Positions 53,850-60,866 of a DNA stretch of 64,000 bases are shown piece after piece. Position 1 is the stretch's first letter; each line of letters opens with the position of its first letter. This DNA comes from Escherichia phage 241, in sequence record OR924452. The stretch is one strand, 5' to 3'. The notes beneath the pieces are model-generated. The model saw only the letters and a program-made list of their open reading frames with translations, did not search any database and was not told where the DNA came from. The translations under genes were made by a program, and so were the position numbers.

Positions 53850-54167
53850 ATGGCTTGTAAAACACCAGAAATGAAATTAGTTGTTTCTTCAAAGGGGCGT
53901 CGCAGCCGCAGTCGAAATCTCATCACCCGTTTAGATATTCTACGTCAAAAATATCAAGCCCACAGCGTATTCACACGCATCCGTAACGCATTAAAGGAAG
54001 GGCGAACCGAGTTGGAGCTATATCGTCCAAACGGTTCGACTCGTGCGTATCAGACCACCGACGGCTTGCTGGAACTGATCCGCCTGAGTGGGATGACAAT
54101 CGAACCCCGCTCGTCAGGGACTCCCCTGTGCTCCCTTTATGTCATCGGCAATCTTGGGGCGCTGTGA
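53850..54167 (+). CDS. Hypothetical basic protein
   Basis: 105-aa ORF with GAGGA RBS; Arg/Lys-rich N-terminus. Confidence 0.45.
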   Translation: MACKTPEMKLVVSSKGRRSRSRNLITRLDILRQKYQAHSVFTRIRNALKEGRTELELYRPNGSTRAYQTTDGLLELIRLSGMTIEPRSSGTPLCSLYVIGNLGAL

Positions 54168-54172
54168 GTTCT

Positions 54173-54595
54173 ATGAAGAAATATGTCGTGCTCATTACAG
54201 GTTCCCGCTCAATAACCGAGCGGGATAAAATCTTCGCCAAACTGGATGAACTGTTAGATCCCCACGAGATCGAAACTTTTATAGAAGGTGAAGCGGTTGG
54301 TGTGGACTTGATATCTCGTGATTGGTGTGAAATCAATTATGTCCATGTTACGCCAATGGGGATCCCTAAGGATTATCACACGATATATGGGAAAGGCGCA
54401 GGAAACCAACGTAACAAAGATATGTTAGACAAAGCTACAACCCTGGCCAAACAAAAAGGTCTTGAGGTCTTTGGAATTGCGTTATGGGATGGTTCGTCTA
54501 CTGGGACGCAAGACATGATTACCCGCATGAAAAAAGCAGGAGTCAATGTCAATATCACTCTCATGGGCAAACCCAAAACCAAACGATTGTTATAA
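54173..54595 (+). CDS. Hypothetical protein; weak resemblance to DUF2493/SLOG-type Rossmann proteins
   Basis: N-terminal KKYVVLITGSRS, a Rossmann-like glycine motif (weak). Confidence 0.5.
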   Translation: MKKYVVLITGSRSITERDKIFAKLDELLDPHEIETFIEGEAVGVDLISRDWCEINYVHVTPMGIPKDYHTIYGKGAGNQRNKDMLDKATTLAKQKGLEVFGIALWDGSSTGTQDMITRMKKAGVNVNITLMGKPKTKRLL

Positions 54596-54617
54596 ATATG
54601 TTTGCCTTCACACCCAT

Positions 54618-54800: not shown

Positions 54801-54802
54801 TT

Positions 54803-54829
54803 ATAAATACCCCCAAAATTGGGGGTATT
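54803..54829 (+). promoter_or_regulatory. Late-promoter-like TATAAATACCCCC plus hairpin (AATACCCCC ... GGGGGTATT)
   Basis: Contains the T4 late-promoter core TATAAATA; 9-bp stem with a 6-nt loop, 2 nt before the ATG at 54832. Confidence 0.5.
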
Positions 54830-54831
54830 TT

Positions 54832-55560
54832 ATGAACGCACAAATCTACGATGTCCTTTCCTCTGGTAACGCATTTAGCAACCCGCTTCCGTCCCTCTCC
54901 GGTCCCTCACAGGATTTAATCACCAGTGGTAGTACCAATATACCATTGATAACTGCCAACGCGACTCCGGAAATGCAGTTGGCTATGTCAGCAGGTGGAT
55001 TAACACCAGATAAACTTACAGCAGCCACAAACATGTATAGCTCTGCCAACACGGGGATAACGACACTGAACACATATGGCGACCAGAGCATAAATGAAGC
55101 GTATTCAAGAATTGGGACTTCCGTTTCATATAAATCAGGTTTGAAAAGTATATCACGGGAACCAAACAATTGTGACCTGATCAACAAAGCATTCGGTGTT
55201 GTTCAGGATCTAGGCCGCCAATGGTTAAACGCTATGGAAGGCGCTCTCCAGACTGTGACTAACAAGATATCGGAATTGTATGACATGATTATGGAAGGTG
55301 CCTCAGAAGGTATGGCAAAACTACAGCAATTGGCTGCTGAAGTAACAGGACATATCAATGAGGCAATAACCGCCGTCAATGGAGTTATAAACGATATCAC
55401 CGATGGGATAGCTGCAGAACTTGCTCATATTGAAAGTATGATCAAAGAATGTCTAAACTTCTCTTTTGCGAATGTTCTTGGAGAATGGGCCAAAGATCTC
55501 TGTGCTGGAGGCGTTATTGATAAAATAGGGACTCCAGAATTAAAAGAGTCCCTGAAATAA
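54832..55560 (+). CDS. Hypothetical protein
   Basis: 242-aa ORF directly after the promoter-hairpin element. Confidence 0.55.
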   Translation: MNAQIYDVLSSGNAFSNPLPSLSGPSQDLITSGSTNIPLITANATPEMQLAMSAGGLTPDKLTAATNMYSSANTGITTLNTYGDQSINEAYSRIGTSVSYKSGLKSISREPNNCDLINKAFGVVQDLGRQWLNAMEGALQTVTNKISELYDMIMEGASEGMAKLQQLAAEVTGHINEAITAVNGVINDITDGIAAELAHIESMIKECLNFSFANVLGEWAKDLCAGGVIDKIGTPELKESLK

Positions 55561-56181
55561 TCAATGTCTAGCGGGGAGAACTCCCACTGGTTCGATACCT
55601 TCCATCACCAGGGAGTTCACCCCAACATCACTCATTCGAATCCATACTTTACCGCCTGGTCTTATTTCATAGATGTTCATTTCATTACCCACAGCAGATC
55701 CATTAACGAAAACACCCTGAGTGGCAATTCGGATCGGAGATTTGGTGTTATTAACTATCTGAAATGATATTGCAACGTCTCTGGTGATTTCTACGTCCCT
55801 TGCTTGAGTATTCCTTCTAAGTTTGTCAAAGAAAGAAGGATTGAAAGTCGCTATGATGCTATTATTCTGAGAGTAATAAATACTTGCGGATAGATATGGG
55901 ATCTTTCCTTCGTCACCTTTCCTCAATAGGGGAATCGTGGTTTTCCAGTATGGTCTCAGTGACTGGTTGTTATCATCAAAACAACCAACAGCTTGAAGAG
56001 TCTGGAAGTTCTGAAAATCAGATACTACTTGATTCAGAATATTTTTATTGCATTTATCAATGTCGGCTGAGATGTTAACAGGTATGGTTCTGATTTCAGG
56101 ATCCCAGAGGTCGGTTACAGAAATGACGGACGTGACAAAGATACGGCAACTTGTGAGTGCAAGCACCATTATCATCGTCAT
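55561..56181 (-). CDS. Lipoprotein (candidate superinfection-exclusion or envelope protein), antisense to neighbouring genes
   Basis: Signal peptide with lipobox MIMVLALTSC; about 200 aa mature protein; only minus-strand gene in this block. Confidence 0.5.
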   Translation of the reverse strand: MTMIMVLALTSCRIFVTSVISVTDLWDPEIRTIPVNISADIDKCNKNILNQVVSDFQNFQTLQAVGCFDDNNQSLRPYWKTTIPLLRKGDEGKIPYLSASIYYSQNNSIIATFNPSFFDKLRRNTQARDVEITRDVAISFQIVNNTKSPIRIATQGVFVNGSAVGNEMNIYEIRPGGKVWIRMSDVGVNSLVMEGIEPVGVLPARH

Positions 56182-56244
56182 GATCCATTTTCTGAATCCG
56201 CGTATCAGGAACACTAAAACGTTCTCCACAGCAAAGGTGCTAAC

Positions 56245-56742
56245 ATGACAGGTGTACAATTCAAAAACGAAAATCCTAATTTCGCGGCTTCCGATAAATG
56301 GCGCTTAACTATCGGAGACCTGATATTGCTTACTCGTTCAATACATGACTTCAGTATTCCTGGAGTGTATTCTGAAGGTATCGAGGGACCATCCCCTGGC
56401 GATGTGCTCAACTCCATACCTTCAGAACGTCTCACGTATGACCCCATCGTATTTACGTTCGTTATCGATGAGAGTTGGTACAACTGGGAACAGATTTACA
56501 ATTGGATTGCGTCTAATGCTGGATCTGATTTAGCTGTCAGCCGCGACATCACCATCGACCTTCTTGATAACATGAATCGACCTGTTGGTCTACAATTGTT
56601 GTTGGAAGAAGCCCGTCCCACAGCTTTGGATAACGTATTGGTGGATGTGGATGCTGCGGTTCCCCAACTGGTCACGACTGTCACGTTCAAATATTTGAAA
56701 CTGACTCCGACTCGCGTCACCCGCGAAATTGATAAACAATAA
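56245..56742 (+). CDS. Hypothetical protein
   Basis: 165-aa ORF with AAAGGTG RBS. Confidence 0.5.
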   Translation: MTGVQFKNENPNFAASDKWRLTIGDLILLTRSIHDFSIPGVYSEGIEGPSPGDVLNSIPSERLTYDPIVFTFVIDESWYNWEQIYNWIASNAGSDLAVSRDITIDLLDNMNRPVGLQLLLEEARPTALDNVLVDVDAAVPQLVTTVTFKYLKLTPTRVTREIDKQ

Positions 56743-56780
56743 GTTATAATACAGAGAGTTGAAACAGCAGGGAATAAATC

Positions 56781-57236
56781 ATGAGCGAAACAAAACTTGA
56801 AACGATGAAAACCGAAGATATAATGGCAGAATTGGAACCTCTTATTTCGGTAAATCCTGAAGACATGAACTTAGACCAAATGTCATTGAAAATTGGTCGT
56901 TCGTGGATGACTGTGCAACGCCATTATATTCGTGAAGGAAGATATCTGGAGTATCTAACTGGCAAATTCCGCCAAATAGATCTCTATTTACGCCGATTTT
57001 ATGCAGGGGAATTGCCGCCCAACGTTTATGTTGAACGCCCATTAAAAGTTCGACCCCTGAAATCTGATATAGACGTATGGGTAAAAGCAGATGATGATTA
57101 TATCGAATTGTCTAGCATGCTTCAAGAGCAGAAAGCCAAAGTCAAGTTCATCGAAAGTTGCTTAGATCGTTTGAACAAACTCGGATATGAAGTGAAGAAT
57201 GCTATTGATTGGCGAAAATATTTGGATGGGATGTAA
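56781..57236 (+). CDS. Hypothetical protein
   Basis: 151-aa ORF with AGGGAA RBS. Confidence 0.5.
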   Translation: MSETKLETMKTEDIMAELEPLISVNPEDMNLDQMSLKIGRSWMTVQRHYIREGRYLEYLTGKFRQIDLYLRRFYAGELPPNVYVERPLKVRPLKSDIDVWVKADDDYIELSSMLQEQKAKVKFIESCLDRLNKLGYEVKNAIDWRKYLDGM

Positions 57237-57982
57237 TGGTTTCTCTACAGGCTTTGCGCAAACTTAATGACTTTGAAAATCGTCATCATACATTTCAGCA
57301 ATATTCCTTGCCGTTTAAGGAACTGACTTGCGTAACTACCGAAAATGGTCGTCACTATGTTTCTCCCACTGGAGTCAAACTAACTTCAGTGACGACCATG
57401 TTAGGGCGTACTGGTGACCACACATGGTTAGAAGCCTGGCGGGACAAGTTGGGGCATGAAGCTGCTGATATAGAAACACATCGTTGCGCAGACCGTGGGG
57501 AAAAACTTCATTTGGCTTGTGAGTTGTATCTCAAAAACAGACCAATGAAGGAAGTTCTGGAAGCTGCAGGGGAATACGTGTTTATGTTCAAACAGGTTTT
57601 CCCCTACCTTAACAAAATGAGCAAGATATATGCACAAGAGATTCCATTATATAGCGAAGTCCTGGGTCTTGCTGGTCGTGTTGACCTTATCGGGGTTTAC
57701 GAAGGAATTCCAAGCATAATCGATTTCAAAACATCCAACACCCTGAAAACTCGGAGCATGATAGAAGATTACAGCATTCAACTATGCCTGTACTCAGTCA
57801 TGTTTCAACAGATGTTTAATGTTAAGATCGAACGTTTGGTCAATATTATATCTAATGAAAATTCTCTTGTCCCGACTATAATCGAATTTAATCGAAAAGA
57901 CGTTATTTCTAAAATGTTTGATCGTGTTCGCCTGTATCATAAAATGGATAAAGAACAGAACGGGATCTGGGCGGATCGCTAA
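57236..57982 (+). CDS. PD-(D/E)XK family nuclease (RecB / lambda-exonuclease-like)
   Basis: Motifs GRVDLIGV and IIDFKTS fit the D...(D/E)xK catalytic core; start overlaps the previous stop (TAATG). Confidence 0.55.
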   Translation: MVSLQALRKLNDFENRHHTFQQYSLPFKELTCVTTENGRHYVSPTGVKLTSVTTMLGRTGDHTWLEAWRDKLGHEAADIETHRCADRGEKLHLACELYLKNRPMKEVLEAAGEYVFMFKQVFPYLNKMSKIYAQEIPLYSEVLGLAGRVDLIGVYEGIPSIIDFKTSNTLKTRSMIEDYSIQLCLYSVMFQQMFNVKIERLVNIISNENSLVPTIIEFNRKDVISKMFDRVRLYHKMDKEQNGIWADR

Positions 57983-57985
57983 ATA
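57979..57985 (+). promoter_or_regulatory. Late-promoter-like CTAAATA motif upstream of uvsW
   Basis: GCTAAATACTCCAT about 25 nt before the start codon. Confidence 0.4.
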
Positions 57986-58010
57986 CTCCATAATATTGGG
58001 GGAATTAGTG

Positions 58011-59516
58011 ATGTCAGAAATTCAAATAATCAAAGTTAACGAAGTGCGCATGCGAATCTTGGCGGAGGACTATATCCGCGAAGAACTCAATGATTACTTC
58101 AAATTTGAAGATCCTAATTTCCAACCGAATCCCTTCAGTAAATGGGATGGCGTGGTACGCTTGTTCACAAAGAGTTCTGGTCTTATAGACATCGGTCTGT
58201 TGTTTGAGGTGTTTAAGTTCTGTAAGATGAATGGTTACACCATCAAATTAGATCCCGCCTTAAAATATATCCAAGATATACCAGACGAAGAGATACATAC
58301 ATTTATCAATTCCCTGAACGCTGTTTACCGTGATGAAAACAAGCAATACCAAATCGCAACAGTGCGGGACTATCAATTCGACTCAGTGGCCACAGCAATA
58401 CGCCAATCCAGATGCGTGCTAGAAGCGGCTACGAGCGCGGGTAAATCGTTTATTTTGTACATCATGGCGCGTTACTACAGGCAACGCAGAGAGGCACTGG
58501 AAAGCAATCTCAAGACGTTGATCGTTGTACCTTCCATTCACTTGGTGACTCAGTTGTATGACAACTTTGAGGAATACAGCCATGGCACAAATTGGAATAC
58601 CATGATGAATGTCCAGATGATATGTGAAGGCGCAACAAAGGACATATTCAAGCCCATAGTCATTTCTACATGGCAGGGTATTCAGAATCAGCCCAAAGAA
58701 TGGTTCCATCAATTTGGGGATATTGTTGTCGACGAAGTACACACATCTAAATCTGAAAAGCTATCTTATATCCTGAACAACTGCATTAATGCTGACCAAA
58801 GATTGGGAGTAACCGGAACCCTCGCGAATACAAAGGTTGCAGGGTTGCAGGTCGTTGCCCATTTTGGAGCATACCATAAAATTATTACAGCACGTGATTT
58901 AATAAATCTTGGTTATGCCACAGATATCCATGTCAACATGATTGAAGTCATACATCCCATGGCGGATTGTATAGAAATGCATGGTGCTGAGTATCAAAAG
59001 GAAATAGAATTCCTCATAGCGAATGAACGTCGAAACGAGTTAATAGCCAGAATGGCATTGTCTTTGAAAGGTAACGTGGCCGTTATGTTCGAACGCATTG
59101 ACGCCCATATGATGATTGTTTATGAAATGCTTTCAGCCGTTAAGAAAAACGTATTTGTCATTAACGGCGAAGTTAAGACAGAAGTTCGTAAACAAATTCA
59201 GGCAGCGATGGAAGAGGGTGAAGATATAACACTGCTGGCATCTTATGGGACCATGCAACAGGGAGTGTCGATCAAAAAACTTCATCATTTGATATTGGCA
59301 CACCCGAGTAAATCCTATATCCGTGTCATACAGACTTTAGGGCGTCTCATGCGCCAGCACTCTTCAAAGGATGTCGCCAAGATCTGGGATTTAGTAGACA
59401 ACTTGCGTTACAATGGATTCTCGTACAACCATGCTCTCAGACATTCGCATGAGAGATATAAATTTTATCTTATGGAGCGACACCCTGTACAAATGAAGAA
59501 AGTGTCGCTCCAGTAA
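58011..59516 (+). CDS. uvsW: UvsW-like SF2 DNA helicase
   Basis: Walker A TSAGKS, DExH box VVDEVH, and C-terminal NLHHLILAHP matching T4 UvsW; start at the ATG at 58011 with GGGGGAA RBS. Confidence 0.85.
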   Translation: MSEIQIIKVNEVRMRILAEDYIREELNDYFKFEDPNFQPNPFSKWDGVVRLFTKSSGLIDIGLLFEVFKFCKMNGYTIKLDPALKYIQDIPDEEIHTFINSLNAVYRDENKQYQIATVRDYQFDSVATAIRQSRCVLEAATSAGKSFILYIMARYYRQRREALESNLKTLIVVPSIHLVTQLYDNFEEYSHGTNWNTMMNVQMICEGATKDIFKPIVISTWQGIQNQPKEWFHQFGDIVVDEVHTSKSEKLSYILNNCINADQRLGVTGTLANTKVAGLQVVAHFGAYHKIITARDLINLGYATDIHVNMIEVIHPMADCIEMHGAEYQKEIEFLIANERRNELIARMALSLKGNVAVMFERIDAHMMIVYEMLSAVKKNVFVINGEVKTEVRKQIQAAMEEGEDITLLASYGTMQQGVSIKKLHHLILAHPSKSYIRVIQTLGRLMRQHSSKDVAKIWDLVDNLRYNGFSYNHALRHSHERYKFYLMERHPVQMKKVSLQ

Positions 59517-59517
59517 T

Positions 59518-59862
59518 TCATTTGTCTTGGTTCACATAGGCGGGGGTCGCCTCGCCTTCTTTGTCAGAACCGAATAAACAACCCATCGTGCTGATGCATT
59601 GTTGTAGAACTTCTGGATCCAGAATCTGACACAACAGTTGTTCATTACATTCCAGCAATGGGACAACTTTCACTTCCCGCGCCTGTCCTTGTTGAATAAT
59701 GCCGACATATAGACCTTTGGTGTCTGGCAGTAACGGGATCACCATCATTGGTGTCACAACAAACTTAGAAGTGCAATAGAGGCTGTGTAGGTAAACACCT
59801 TTCAATGCCGGACATGCTTCTTGTTCTTCCCCCACTGCATATAAACCCACGAATTGTTTCAT
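59518..59862 (-). CDS. Hypothetical Cys-containing protein
   Basis: 114-aa ORF convergent with uvsW. Confidence 0.45.
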   Translation of the reverse strand: MKQFVGLYAVGEEQEACPALKGVYLHSLYCTSKFVVTPMMVIPLLPDTKGLYVGIIQQGQAREVKVVPLLECNEQLLCQILDPEVLQQCISTMGCLFGSDKEGEATPAYVNQDK

Positions 59863-59979
59863 ATATTACTCTCTTGTTAGTAAACATGACTACATAATAA
59901 TTTCATGCTGTGTTTAGACCAAATAAATTATTTTGCTAGTTGAATAAAAATCGCTTTCTTGTTGAACAAACCGTGCGTA

Positions 59980-60060
59980 ATATACGAGTTGTGAGCTTTG
60001 CGAGCAACGAGTATTATCACGAGCGAAGCGAGTAGACTAATAAAGAAAGGTTTATTAAAA
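59980..60060. repeat. CGAG-repeat noncoding element (copy B) in the divergent region before gp45
   Basis: ACGAGTTGTGAG, CAACGAG and CACGAGCGAAGCGAG words shared with the element at 17940-18090. Confidence 0.4.
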
Positions 60061-60197
60061 CAGAATACTATAAATGCCGTCAGGCATTTATTTATCGCGC
60101 GTAGGGCATTTTAACACTTGTTCTATAACTGCAAACACGCGATACTAATTTGCGTCAAACATGACTTGAACCCCACTATATTTTGAGGATATAAACA

Positions 60198-60866
60198 ATG
60201 CAAGAGATCACTCTCTCTGAACGTACTTTACAACTGCTGGCCAACTTTGAAACCATTTGCCCTTCTATCGTTCTGGCACCTGGTAAAAAGCTGCGCACTG
60301 TTAACGACTCCAGCACCGTCATCGCTATCGCTGACATCGACGAAGACTTCCCGTTTGAATTCCCTATTTTGGATCTGACCAAACTTCTGGCCATTCAGCG
60401 TCTGCCTAGTTTCAAAGGCGGTAAAATCGAAATGTCGGAAGATCATATTTTACTGAAAGGTGAAAACTCGCAGCTGCAATTCTGGCGCTCAGCAAAAGAA
60501 TTGACTGTCGTTCCTGCCGACAGCATTGATCTCCCGTCCGTTGAATTCGAAGCGACGGTCACTCCTGAAAAAATGAAAGAGCTGACCCGCGCCTGTTCTA
60601 CTCTGGGACACAAAACTGTTCGTCTGGTTGCCAGCGGCGGTAAAACCCGTCTGGTCGGTACGACTACGACTATCGATAATTCCAACGATTACACCGTTGA
60701 ATTGGGTGAAACTGCTCTGGCTGATTTCGCTATGCCTGTCGACGTTGTTAACCTGAAAATGATCGAAGGCAACTATGTGATCCGCGCCTGTGCTGAAATG
60801 CAGCTTGTTAACTTCCAGTCGGCTGACGGCACCATCAACTACTACGTTGGCATGCAGCTGGATTAA
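60198..60866 (+). CDS. gp45: Sliding clamp (T4 gp45-like)
   Basis: LLANFETICPSIVL and NLKMIEGNYVI align with T4 gp45; 222 aa. Confidence 0.85.
   Translation: MQEITLSERTLQLLANFETICPSIVLAPGKKLRTVNDSSTVIAIADIDEDFPFEFPILDLTKLLAIQRLPSFKGGKIEMSEDHILLKGENSQLQFWRSAKELTVVPADSIDLPSVEFEATVTPEKMKELTRACSTLGHKTVRLVASGGKTRLVGTTTTIDNSNDYTVELGETALADFAMPVDVVNLKMIEGNYVIRACAEMQLVNFQSADGTINYYVGMQLD

Follow-up and report, generated by a model that had tools for sequence, protein, structure and literature searches.

A predicted MGME1-type PD-(D/E)XK nuclease encoded between uvsY and uvsW in Escherichia phage 241 and other Vi01-like phages

We analysed a stretch of 64,000 nucleotides from Escherichia phage 241 (sequence record OR924452), hereafter the window, in which four co-oriented open reading frames (ORFs) on the plus strand cover positions 56245-59516 and encode, in this order, a gp3-like protein, the recombination mediator UvsY, a nuclease and the helicase UvsW. 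The nuclease is the subject of this analysis. As judged from sequence comparison and a predicted structure, it is a stand-alone RecB-family PD-(D/E)XK enzyme of the type of human MGME1 (Ddk1/C20orf72), without an iron-sulphur (Fe-S) cluster. The genes and junctions of the block are the following.

56245..56742, plus strand: gp3-like tail completion or tail tube-like gene, the first gene of the block (PHROG 45 'tail tube', 2.3e-33)
56781..57236, plus strand: uvsY recombination mediator gene (151 amino acids; TAA stop at 57234-57236)
57234..57238, plus strand: TAATG stop/start overlap, in which the uvsY TAA and the nuclease ATG have base 57236 in common
57236..57982, plus strand: gene for the predicted MGME1-type RecB-family PD-(D/E)XK nuclease (248 amino acids; ATG at 57236-57238, TAA at 57980-57982)
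57983..58010, plus strand: spacer of 28 nucleotides with a GGGGGA ribosome-binding site for uvsW and without a terminator-like hairpin
58011..59516, plus strand: uvsW gene (SF2 helicase, 501 amino acids; ATG at 58011, stop ending at 59516)

The nuclease matched the Pfam family PDDEXK_1 (PF12705; 29.9 bits against a gathering score of 22, E 6.6e-7) and PHROG 298 'exonuclease' (2.3e-86). Homologues are numerous: 2203 were found in the databases, most of them with a precomputed PF12705 hit, a match to the nuclease was present in 995 phage records, and many fold matches were obtained in BFVD as well. The gene is single-copy in the genome and encodes a stand-alone protein of ~25-29 kDa. When the single sequence was searched against the PDB, human MGME1 came first, at E 0.022. 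A profile of length 225, made from an alignment of 37 homologues ranging from 84% down to 35% identity, found MGME1 at E 7.3e-18 over profile positions 31-224, the runner-up entry being a Cas4-like protein at E 0.23. The reverse search with the MGME1 core (residues 128-335, a query rebuilt from the profile-search alignment) returned PHROG 298 at 1.7e-23, with the next phage family at 1.8e-4.

The predicted structure points in the same direction. An AlphaFold2 model based on the alignment of 37 homologues reached a mean predicted local distance difference test score (pLDDT) of 94.6 and a predicted template modelling score of 0.90, and in a Foldseek search of the PDB with this model the top nine matches were all MGME1 chains (E 5.6e-12 to 1.8e-10), with target-normalised template modelling (TM) scores of 0.69-0.84. 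The best match, 5zyu_A (E 5.6e-12), superposed with a root mean square deviation of 2.0 A over 204 columns and a target-normalised TM-score of 0.76. RecE came next, at TM-scores of 0.44-0.49, followed by Cas4, ExoV, AddA, AdnA, Dna2 and RecB. By sequence profile as well as by predicted fold, MGME1 is thus the closest characterised relative of the nuclease. The nuclease fold that had been proposed from the letters of the sequence is indeed predicted, and the description 'RecB/lambda-exo-like' holds for its RecB-family half, on Pfam and fold; the protein is of the MGME1 type and not of the lambda Exo/YqaJ type.

The residues of the putative active site could be placed by counting through HMMER alignments between the phage protein and MGME1, as follows.

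57509..57793, plus strand: catalytic codon span, residues H92 to Y186
57509-57511, plus strand: H92, aligned with MGME1 His180
57638-57640, plus strand: E135, aligned with MGME1 Glu223
57683-57685, plus strand: D150, aligned with MGME1 Asp238
57722-57724, plus strand: D163, aligned with MGME1 Asp251
57728-57730, plus strand: K165, aligned with MGME1 Lys253
57779-57781, plus strand: Q182, RecB-family QxxxY motif
57791-57793, plus strand: Y186, RecB-family QxxxY motif

All seven residues, together with W68, which aligns with the MGME1 arch residue Trp152, were invariant in 37 of 37 homologues, down to 35% identity, and the motifs GRVD150, IID163-F-K165 and Q182-LCL-Y186 were unchanged across these sequences; the conservation of catalytic residues that had been named as a test of the nuclease assignment is therefore borne out. 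In MGME1, metal is coordinated by His180, Asp238, Asp251 and the backbone of Trp252 with support by Glu223, Lys253 positions the nucleophilic water and Trp152 stabilises the helical arch (PMC6237815). A four-cysteine Fe-S site was absent from the alignment, which contained no invariant cysteine and a single column that is mostly cysteine (position 84, 31 of 37 sequences).

Phage nuclease and MGME1 thus have in common the RecB-type PD-(D/E)XK fold (PDB entries 5ZYU, 5ZYT, 5ZYV, 5ZYW and 8XA9), the same catalytic residues (His, Glu, Asp, Asp-x-Lys, QxxxY) and the tryptophan of the arch, the lack of an Fe-S cluster and a single-domain build with a similar core size. Identity to the MGME1 core amounts to ~30% over 133 positions in a local alignment and to 17-21% over full structural alignments. 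The N-terminal region of ~100 residues in MGME1 (PMC3597694) is missing from the phage protein, whose N-terminus carries its own short extension instead. We regard the phage protein, encoded beside uvsY and uvsW, as a homologue and not as an orthologue of MGME1: it is phage-encoded and aligns to MGME1 residues 128-335 only, which places it outside the Ddk1 orthologous group with its mitochondrial targeting; Ddk1-like proteins proper have been described from Opisthokonta only, with the phage exonucleases as a neighbouring group (PMC3597694).

Two other families of the same superfamily were considered and rejected. The Cas4 model TIGR00372 scored 35.3 bits against a cut-off of 65, the conserved four-cysteine Fe-S motif of Cas4 was lacking, and the TM-scores to Cas4 folds were 0.29-0.41 versus 0.69-0.84 for MGME1. 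A YqaJ domain, one of the two Pfam domains by which the assignment was to be checked, gave no match at E <=0.01, and lambda Exo was not among the 50 PDB fold matches listed.

Residues 1-25 (57236-57310) and 236-248 (57941-57979, with the C-terminal one reading ...KMDKEQNGIWADR) form extensions found in the enterobacterial Ackermannviridae proteins, and most metagenomic and cyanophage homologues are without them. The terminal blocks of 10 residues in the model have lower pLDDT values (75 and 78). These extensions could be partner-binding tails.

The genes on both sides of the nuclease gene were clearly identified; the upstream one, uvsY, had been left without a name in the original prediction. 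The upstream product matched Pfam UvsY (PF11056, 5e-12, 46.8 bits against a cut-off of 22.8) and PHROG 231 'UvsY-like recombination mediator' (4.9e-45), and a sequence search of solved structures with it gave no match. The downstream product contains the Pfam domains UvsW_N (PF21241, 34 bits against a cut-off of 25.3), ResIII (3.8e-17) and Helicase_C (4.9e-7), its residues 14-483 match the crystal structure of T4 UvsW (2OCA, E 2e-78), and over the full length it is 31-35% identical to UvsW of the T4-like phages RB49 and JS10 and of cyanophages; by these sequence matches it is a genuine uvsW. Given the homologue counts and the matches to Pfam, PHROG and structures, the three ORFs are real genes and not chance ORFs. 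The counterpart of the gp3-like gene in Vi01 is annotated as 'Gp3-tail completion'.

The junction between uvsY and the nuclease gene is the tightest of the block. The overlap with the preceding stop and the direct precedence to uvsW, both claimed in the original prediction for the span 57236-59516 (nuclease start to helicase stop), were confirmed to the base. A Shine-Dalgarno-like stretch (GGATGGGA) lies just 5' of the nuclease ATG. Translation might also begin from an in-frame TTG at 57209, but the ATG at 57236 is favoured, as the starts of homologues align there and the Vi01 annotation agrees. The translational coupling that had been proposed applies to one side only: the stop/start overlap joins the nuclease to uvsY, whereas uvsW has its own spacer and ribosome-binding site. 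Gene boundaries are identical in Vi01 (Vi01_139c, Vi01_138c and Vi01_137c), as is the 28-nucleotide spacer between the nuclease gene and uvsW.

A scan of 55400-60300 showed no terminator-like sites between uvsY, the nuclease gene and uvsW. Over this region the scans for terminators and promoters were uninformative in general, with 4 terminator-like sites against 3.5 +/- 2.0 expected and 20 sigma-70-like sites against 13.3 +/- 3.6 expected. The T4 late-promoter motif TATAAATA was absent upstream of the block and occurred in 2 exact copies in the window, which equals the chance expectation.

The block is well conserved. Matches to its 3.66 kb were found in 224 phage records, at least 80% of it being covered in 215 of these, and the whole gp3/uvsY/nuclease/uvsW block is present in the same number of records (215/224). 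Among the 25 records listed, all from Salmonella or Escherichia Vi01-like phages, identity to the block was ~93-96%. For the window, DNA identity to Vi01-like phages amounts to ~94-96%. The Vi01-like matches, which include BRM 13313, PhaxI, SJ2, Vi01, Maynard and Det7, belong to the genus Kuttervirus of the Ackermannviridae, and the nuclease protein is 98-99% identical to its counterparts in Vi01, ISTP3 and Det7. Existing records label the three genes as 'UvsY-like recombination mediator', as 'exonuclease' or 'PD-(D/E)XK nuclease', and as 'DNA helicase' or 'UvsW helicase', and a published table of conserved Vi01-like genes has DNA helicase, exonuclease, UvsY-like recombination mediator and tail completion protein in consecutive rows (PMC10892097). 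The feature is thus a standard annotated core gene block of Vi01-like phages; the GenBank records of Vi01, PhaxI, Maynard and >200 relatives already had the gene, under this label and at this position. In Salmonella phage vB_Sen_ST2 (OR710291.1, 117452-121819), the block holds ~700 extra bases that are annotated as a homing endonuclease, so that the block tolerates the insertion of a mobile element.

The order uvsY-nuclease-helicase is kept in the more distant Vibrio phage D506 and Aeromonas phage TSW001, with nucleases that are 45% and 47% identical, respectively. The stop/start overlap with uvsY is retained as well, with the letters TAATG in the window and Vi01, ATGA in D506 and GTGA in TSW001. 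The spacer between nuclease and helicase gene is ~25-28 nucleotides, with its own ribosome-binding site, in the window, Vi01 and TSW001. In D506 the distance is ~100 nucleotides, and at the nuclease stop codon (L001 4735-4765) there is a GC-rich hairpin, GACGCC-TAAT-TGGGCGTC, with a T run after it; uvsW of this phage may have a transcript separate from that of uvsY and the nuclease gene. The link of the nuclease to the helicase gene is looser than its link to uvsY. The D506 helicase is annotated as two ORFs.

As had been claimed, T4 does not have this arrangement. In the uvsW-uvsY region of T4 the two genes are convergent (uvsW on the plus and uvsY on the minus strand) and are separated by uvsY.-1 and uvsY.-2 alone, without a nuclease gene. 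In cyanophage P-HM1 the order is gp3, uvsY, uvsW and uvsY abuts uvsW. This order suggests that the gp3-uvsY-uvsW block is ancestral and that the nuclease gene was inserted and became fixed in the Ackermannviridae lineage.

PHROG 298, also known as the 'T4-GC 325' exonuclease of T4-like cyanophages, pelagiphages and rhizobiophages, is the same family, with 30-36% identity between the phage 241 protein and the cyanophage proteins. The genes around these homologues are different. In cyanophages and pelagiphages, where uvsY abuts uvsW, the nuclease gene goes with phoH and gp33: in Syn1 the neighbours are phoH (adjoining), gp33 and td, and in pelagiphage HTVC008M it is near phoH, gp33 and td with other ORFs in between. 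In Sinorhizobium phage phiM7 it lies beside an HNH endonuclease gene with a phoH-like gene ~2 kb upstream, in Sinorhizobium phage phiM9 beside a dCMP deaminase gene, in jumbo phages beside nrdA, and in siphophage S-CBS4 near genes for a Sak-like annealing protein, dcd and thy1. No uvsW or annotated helicase gene was found beside the homologue in phiM7, phiM9, Syn1, HTVC008M, HTVC027P, S-CBS4, phAPEC6 and phiKp_21. These varied neighbours mean that helicase adjacency is not a property of the family, which rules out a nuclease-helicase pairing as a family-wide trait; an insertion between uvsY and uvsW, and with it the adjacency of the nuclease gene to these two genes, is confined to the Ackermannviridae. 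In S-CBS4 (L007 3201-5714), the MGME1-like exonuclease gene lies ~0.8 kb downstream of that for the Sak-like single-strand annealing protein, a layout that recalls the exonuclease-plus-annealase pairs of lambda Red or RecET, but the type of nuclease differs.

As to function, we lean, with moderate confidence and by analogy with MGME1, towards a metal-dependent nuclease for single-stranded DNA (ssDNA) ends and flaps that is made together with UvsY and serves recombination-dependent replication and repair; substrate preference, metal dependence, monomeric state and biological role are all inferred here. Two divalent metal ions would be held by H92, E135, D150 and D163, as in the MGME1 structures, K165 would position the attacking water, and free ssDNA ends or flaps would thread under the helical arch. 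Like MGME1, the enzyme would degrade or trim ssDNA from free ends and cut flaps, and it may have the preference of MGME1 for ssDNA and its ability to degrade in two directions. It would be translated in step with UvsY and is probably on one transcript with the branch-migration helicase UvsW, since no terminator-like site separates the three genes in the window. Single-stranded tails or flaps that arise from strand invasion, branch migration or strand-displacement synthesis might then be trimmed, which would let ligase seal the recombination intermediates. In favour of a link to recombination, the overlap with uvsY is kept in form from Kuttervirus to the Vibrio and Aeromonas phages, at ~45% protein identity, and the S-CBS4 homologue lies near a single-strand annealing protein gene. 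The recombination or repair module suggested in the original prediction is in line with this, as a reading that co-expression makes reasonable; the adjacency of nuclease and helicase gene is a trait of one lineage, and a functional pairing of the two proteins is therefore putative.

A role in flap removal fits with the other replication genes of these phages. In Vi01 the product of Vi01_104c is of the RNase HI type (PF00075, 7e-25), and a family-B polymerase is present that has no 5' nuclease domain. Searches of the window and the whole Vi01 genome for a FEN RNase H of the T4 type found none, whether by tblastn (best E 0.85), by phmmer --max (0.27) or with a profile of 61 sequences (best E 0.58); their sensitivity for very remote FENs is limited. 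T4 RNase H (rnh), a FEN-family 5' nuclease, might be a functional analogue that acts at the same step of 5' flap and primer removal before ligation; its FEN/PIN-like fold is unrelated to PD-(D/E)XK. For the removal of primers and flaps, mitochondria reportedly use RNase H1 and MGME1. A more specific proposal, which we put forward as a tentative and rather improbable one, is that the Ackermannviridae have a mitochondria-like flap processing in which an RNase HI and the MGME1-like nuclease replace the FEN RNase H of T4, the nuclease being delivered through its co-synthesis with UvsY.

Several observations weigh against a dedicated role in recombination or flap trimming. Literature searches yielded no functional study of any phage member of the family or of an Ackermannviridae exonuclease. 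Elsewhere the homologue adjoins phoH/gp33, nrdA or a dCMP deaminase gene, and from such neighbours it follows that the family has no obligatory link to recombination genes. Syn1 carries, in addition to its homologue of the nuclease, a gene that is annotated as 'Rnh RNaseH'; if this is a T4-type FEN, the nuclease is not a simple FEN replacement. In Vi01 there are gp46/47, DexA and a RuvC-like resolvase, by which ends and junctions could be processed without the nuclease, and a ligase as well. Stop/start overlaps are common in phages and are no proof of a functional partnership, and the sensitivity of the FEN searches leaves room for a very remote FEN.

Other explanations can be given for a nuclease gene at this place. 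The nuclease might work with a helicase (UvsW or Dda) in the resection of double-strand breaks, degrading the 5' strand so that UvsY can load UvsX onto the 3' tails that are left; this would amount to a split helicase-nuclease machine like RecBCD, AddAB or Dna2, and is the strongest form of the nuclease-helicase module that had been proposed. The position of the gene between uvsY and uvsW in the same orientation fits with this, as does the fact that AddA, AdnA, RecB and Dna2, which all turned up as weaker fold matches, are cases of RecB-family domains that cooperate with helicases; RecE ranks second by fold, and the homologue in S-CBS4 has the Sak-like annealing protein gene nearby. Yet the phage already has the T4-type resection complex gp46/47, and the fold is much nearer to MGME1 (TM 0.69-0.84) than to RecE (0.49). 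RecE and lambda Exo are recombination nucleases of phages and prophages from the same superfamily and with the same two-metal chemistry, but they are ring-shaped multimers that take in double-stranded DNA, whereas MGME1 is reported to be monomeric and to prefer ssDNA and is predicted to be without the features for RecE-type tetramers and double-strand binding (PMC3597694). Moreover, not one of the 120 homologues listed (170-316 amino acids) is a nuclease-helicase fusion, the terminator-like hairpin and ~100 nucleotides stand between the nuclease and helicase genes in D506, and outside the Ackermannviridae the nuclease gene is not beside uvsW. We therefore consider resection, also in the form of a split machine, unlikely.

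A somewhat less probable explanation is scavenging, in which host or linear DNA is degraded to nucleotides for phage synthesis and the placement between uvsY and uvsW is incidental. The nucleotide-metabolism and phosphate-stress genes found near homologues speak for it (phoH and td in Syn1 and HTVC008M, the dCMP deaminase gene in phiM9, nrdA in jumbo phages, dcd and thy1 in S-CBS4), and so do passages in two papers on MGME1, one of which involves it in the degradation of linear mitochondrial DNA fragments (PMC6584726), while the other reports a linear mitochondrial DNA fragment upon its loss (PMC4222359). Incidental placement is hard to square, however, with a position and a uvsY overlap that are kept down to ~45% protein identity, and a nuclease that needs ssDNA ends cannot start on an intact host chromosome by itself. 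A Cas4-like role in CRISPR or anti-defence (spacer processing or a decoy), as proposed for some phage Cas4-like genes, would account for the weak similarity to PHROG 1706 'CRISPR/Cas system associated' (4.6e-10) and TIGR00372 (1e-8) and for the Cas4 structures among the low-TM fold matches. With a TIGR00372 score below cut-off, no Fe-S cysteines, low TM-scores and a genomic context of recombination and replication genes instead of cas genes, this role is very improbable and the Cas4-like reading is effectively refuted.

The similarity between MGME1 and phage exonucleases, mostly from Caudovirales of cyanobacteria and proteobacteria, was noted in 2013, when a phage origin was suggested for MGME1 as for POLRMT, POLG and Twinkle (PMC3597694). 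The name has also entered annotation, as the JGI label 'genome maintenance exonuclease 1' on some homologues and in one viral entry of UniProt. What we add is a sharper, MGME1-type label, backed by a confident model and by the complete set of catalytic residues, and the observation that the Vi01-like phages have no T4-type FEN RNase H detectable by the searches described. This matters little as a discovery; the biochemistry of a large phage family is nevertheless a real if modest gap, and filling it could inform work on MGME1. If mitochondria-like flap processing does take place, the phage enzyme would offer a tractable way to model MGME1 in a bacterial virus, and the idea of 2013 that MGME1 came from a phage replication or recombination toolkit would gain functional weight.

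Some minor observations concern the surroundings of the block. Both copies of TATAAATA (54591-54598 and 54802-54809) lie 5' of plus-strand ORFs: the former overlaps the stop of the ORF at 54128-54595 and is ahead of a small ORF that is annotated in Vi01 (Vi01_143c), and the latter is located 22 nucleotides before a DUF7217 gene. This DUF7217 gene (54832-55560, 2e-102) and a YspA/SLOG-like gene (54173-54595; Pfam YAcAr, 1.1e-8) match the C-terminal and N-terminal parts, respectively, of one PHROG (phrog_289 'GTP-binding domain'), which suggests that the protein is fused in other phages and split in the window. Downstream of the block, a conserved ORF of 114 amino acids and unknown function (59518-59862, minus strand; PHROG 4255, 3.7e-54) is convergent with uvsW, the two stop codons being one base apart, and a terminator-like hairpin (AGGCGGGGGTCGCCTCGCCT, 59538-59557) lies within its 3' end. 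Between this ORF and the clamp gene there are ~335 nucleotides of non-coding DNA (59863-60197).

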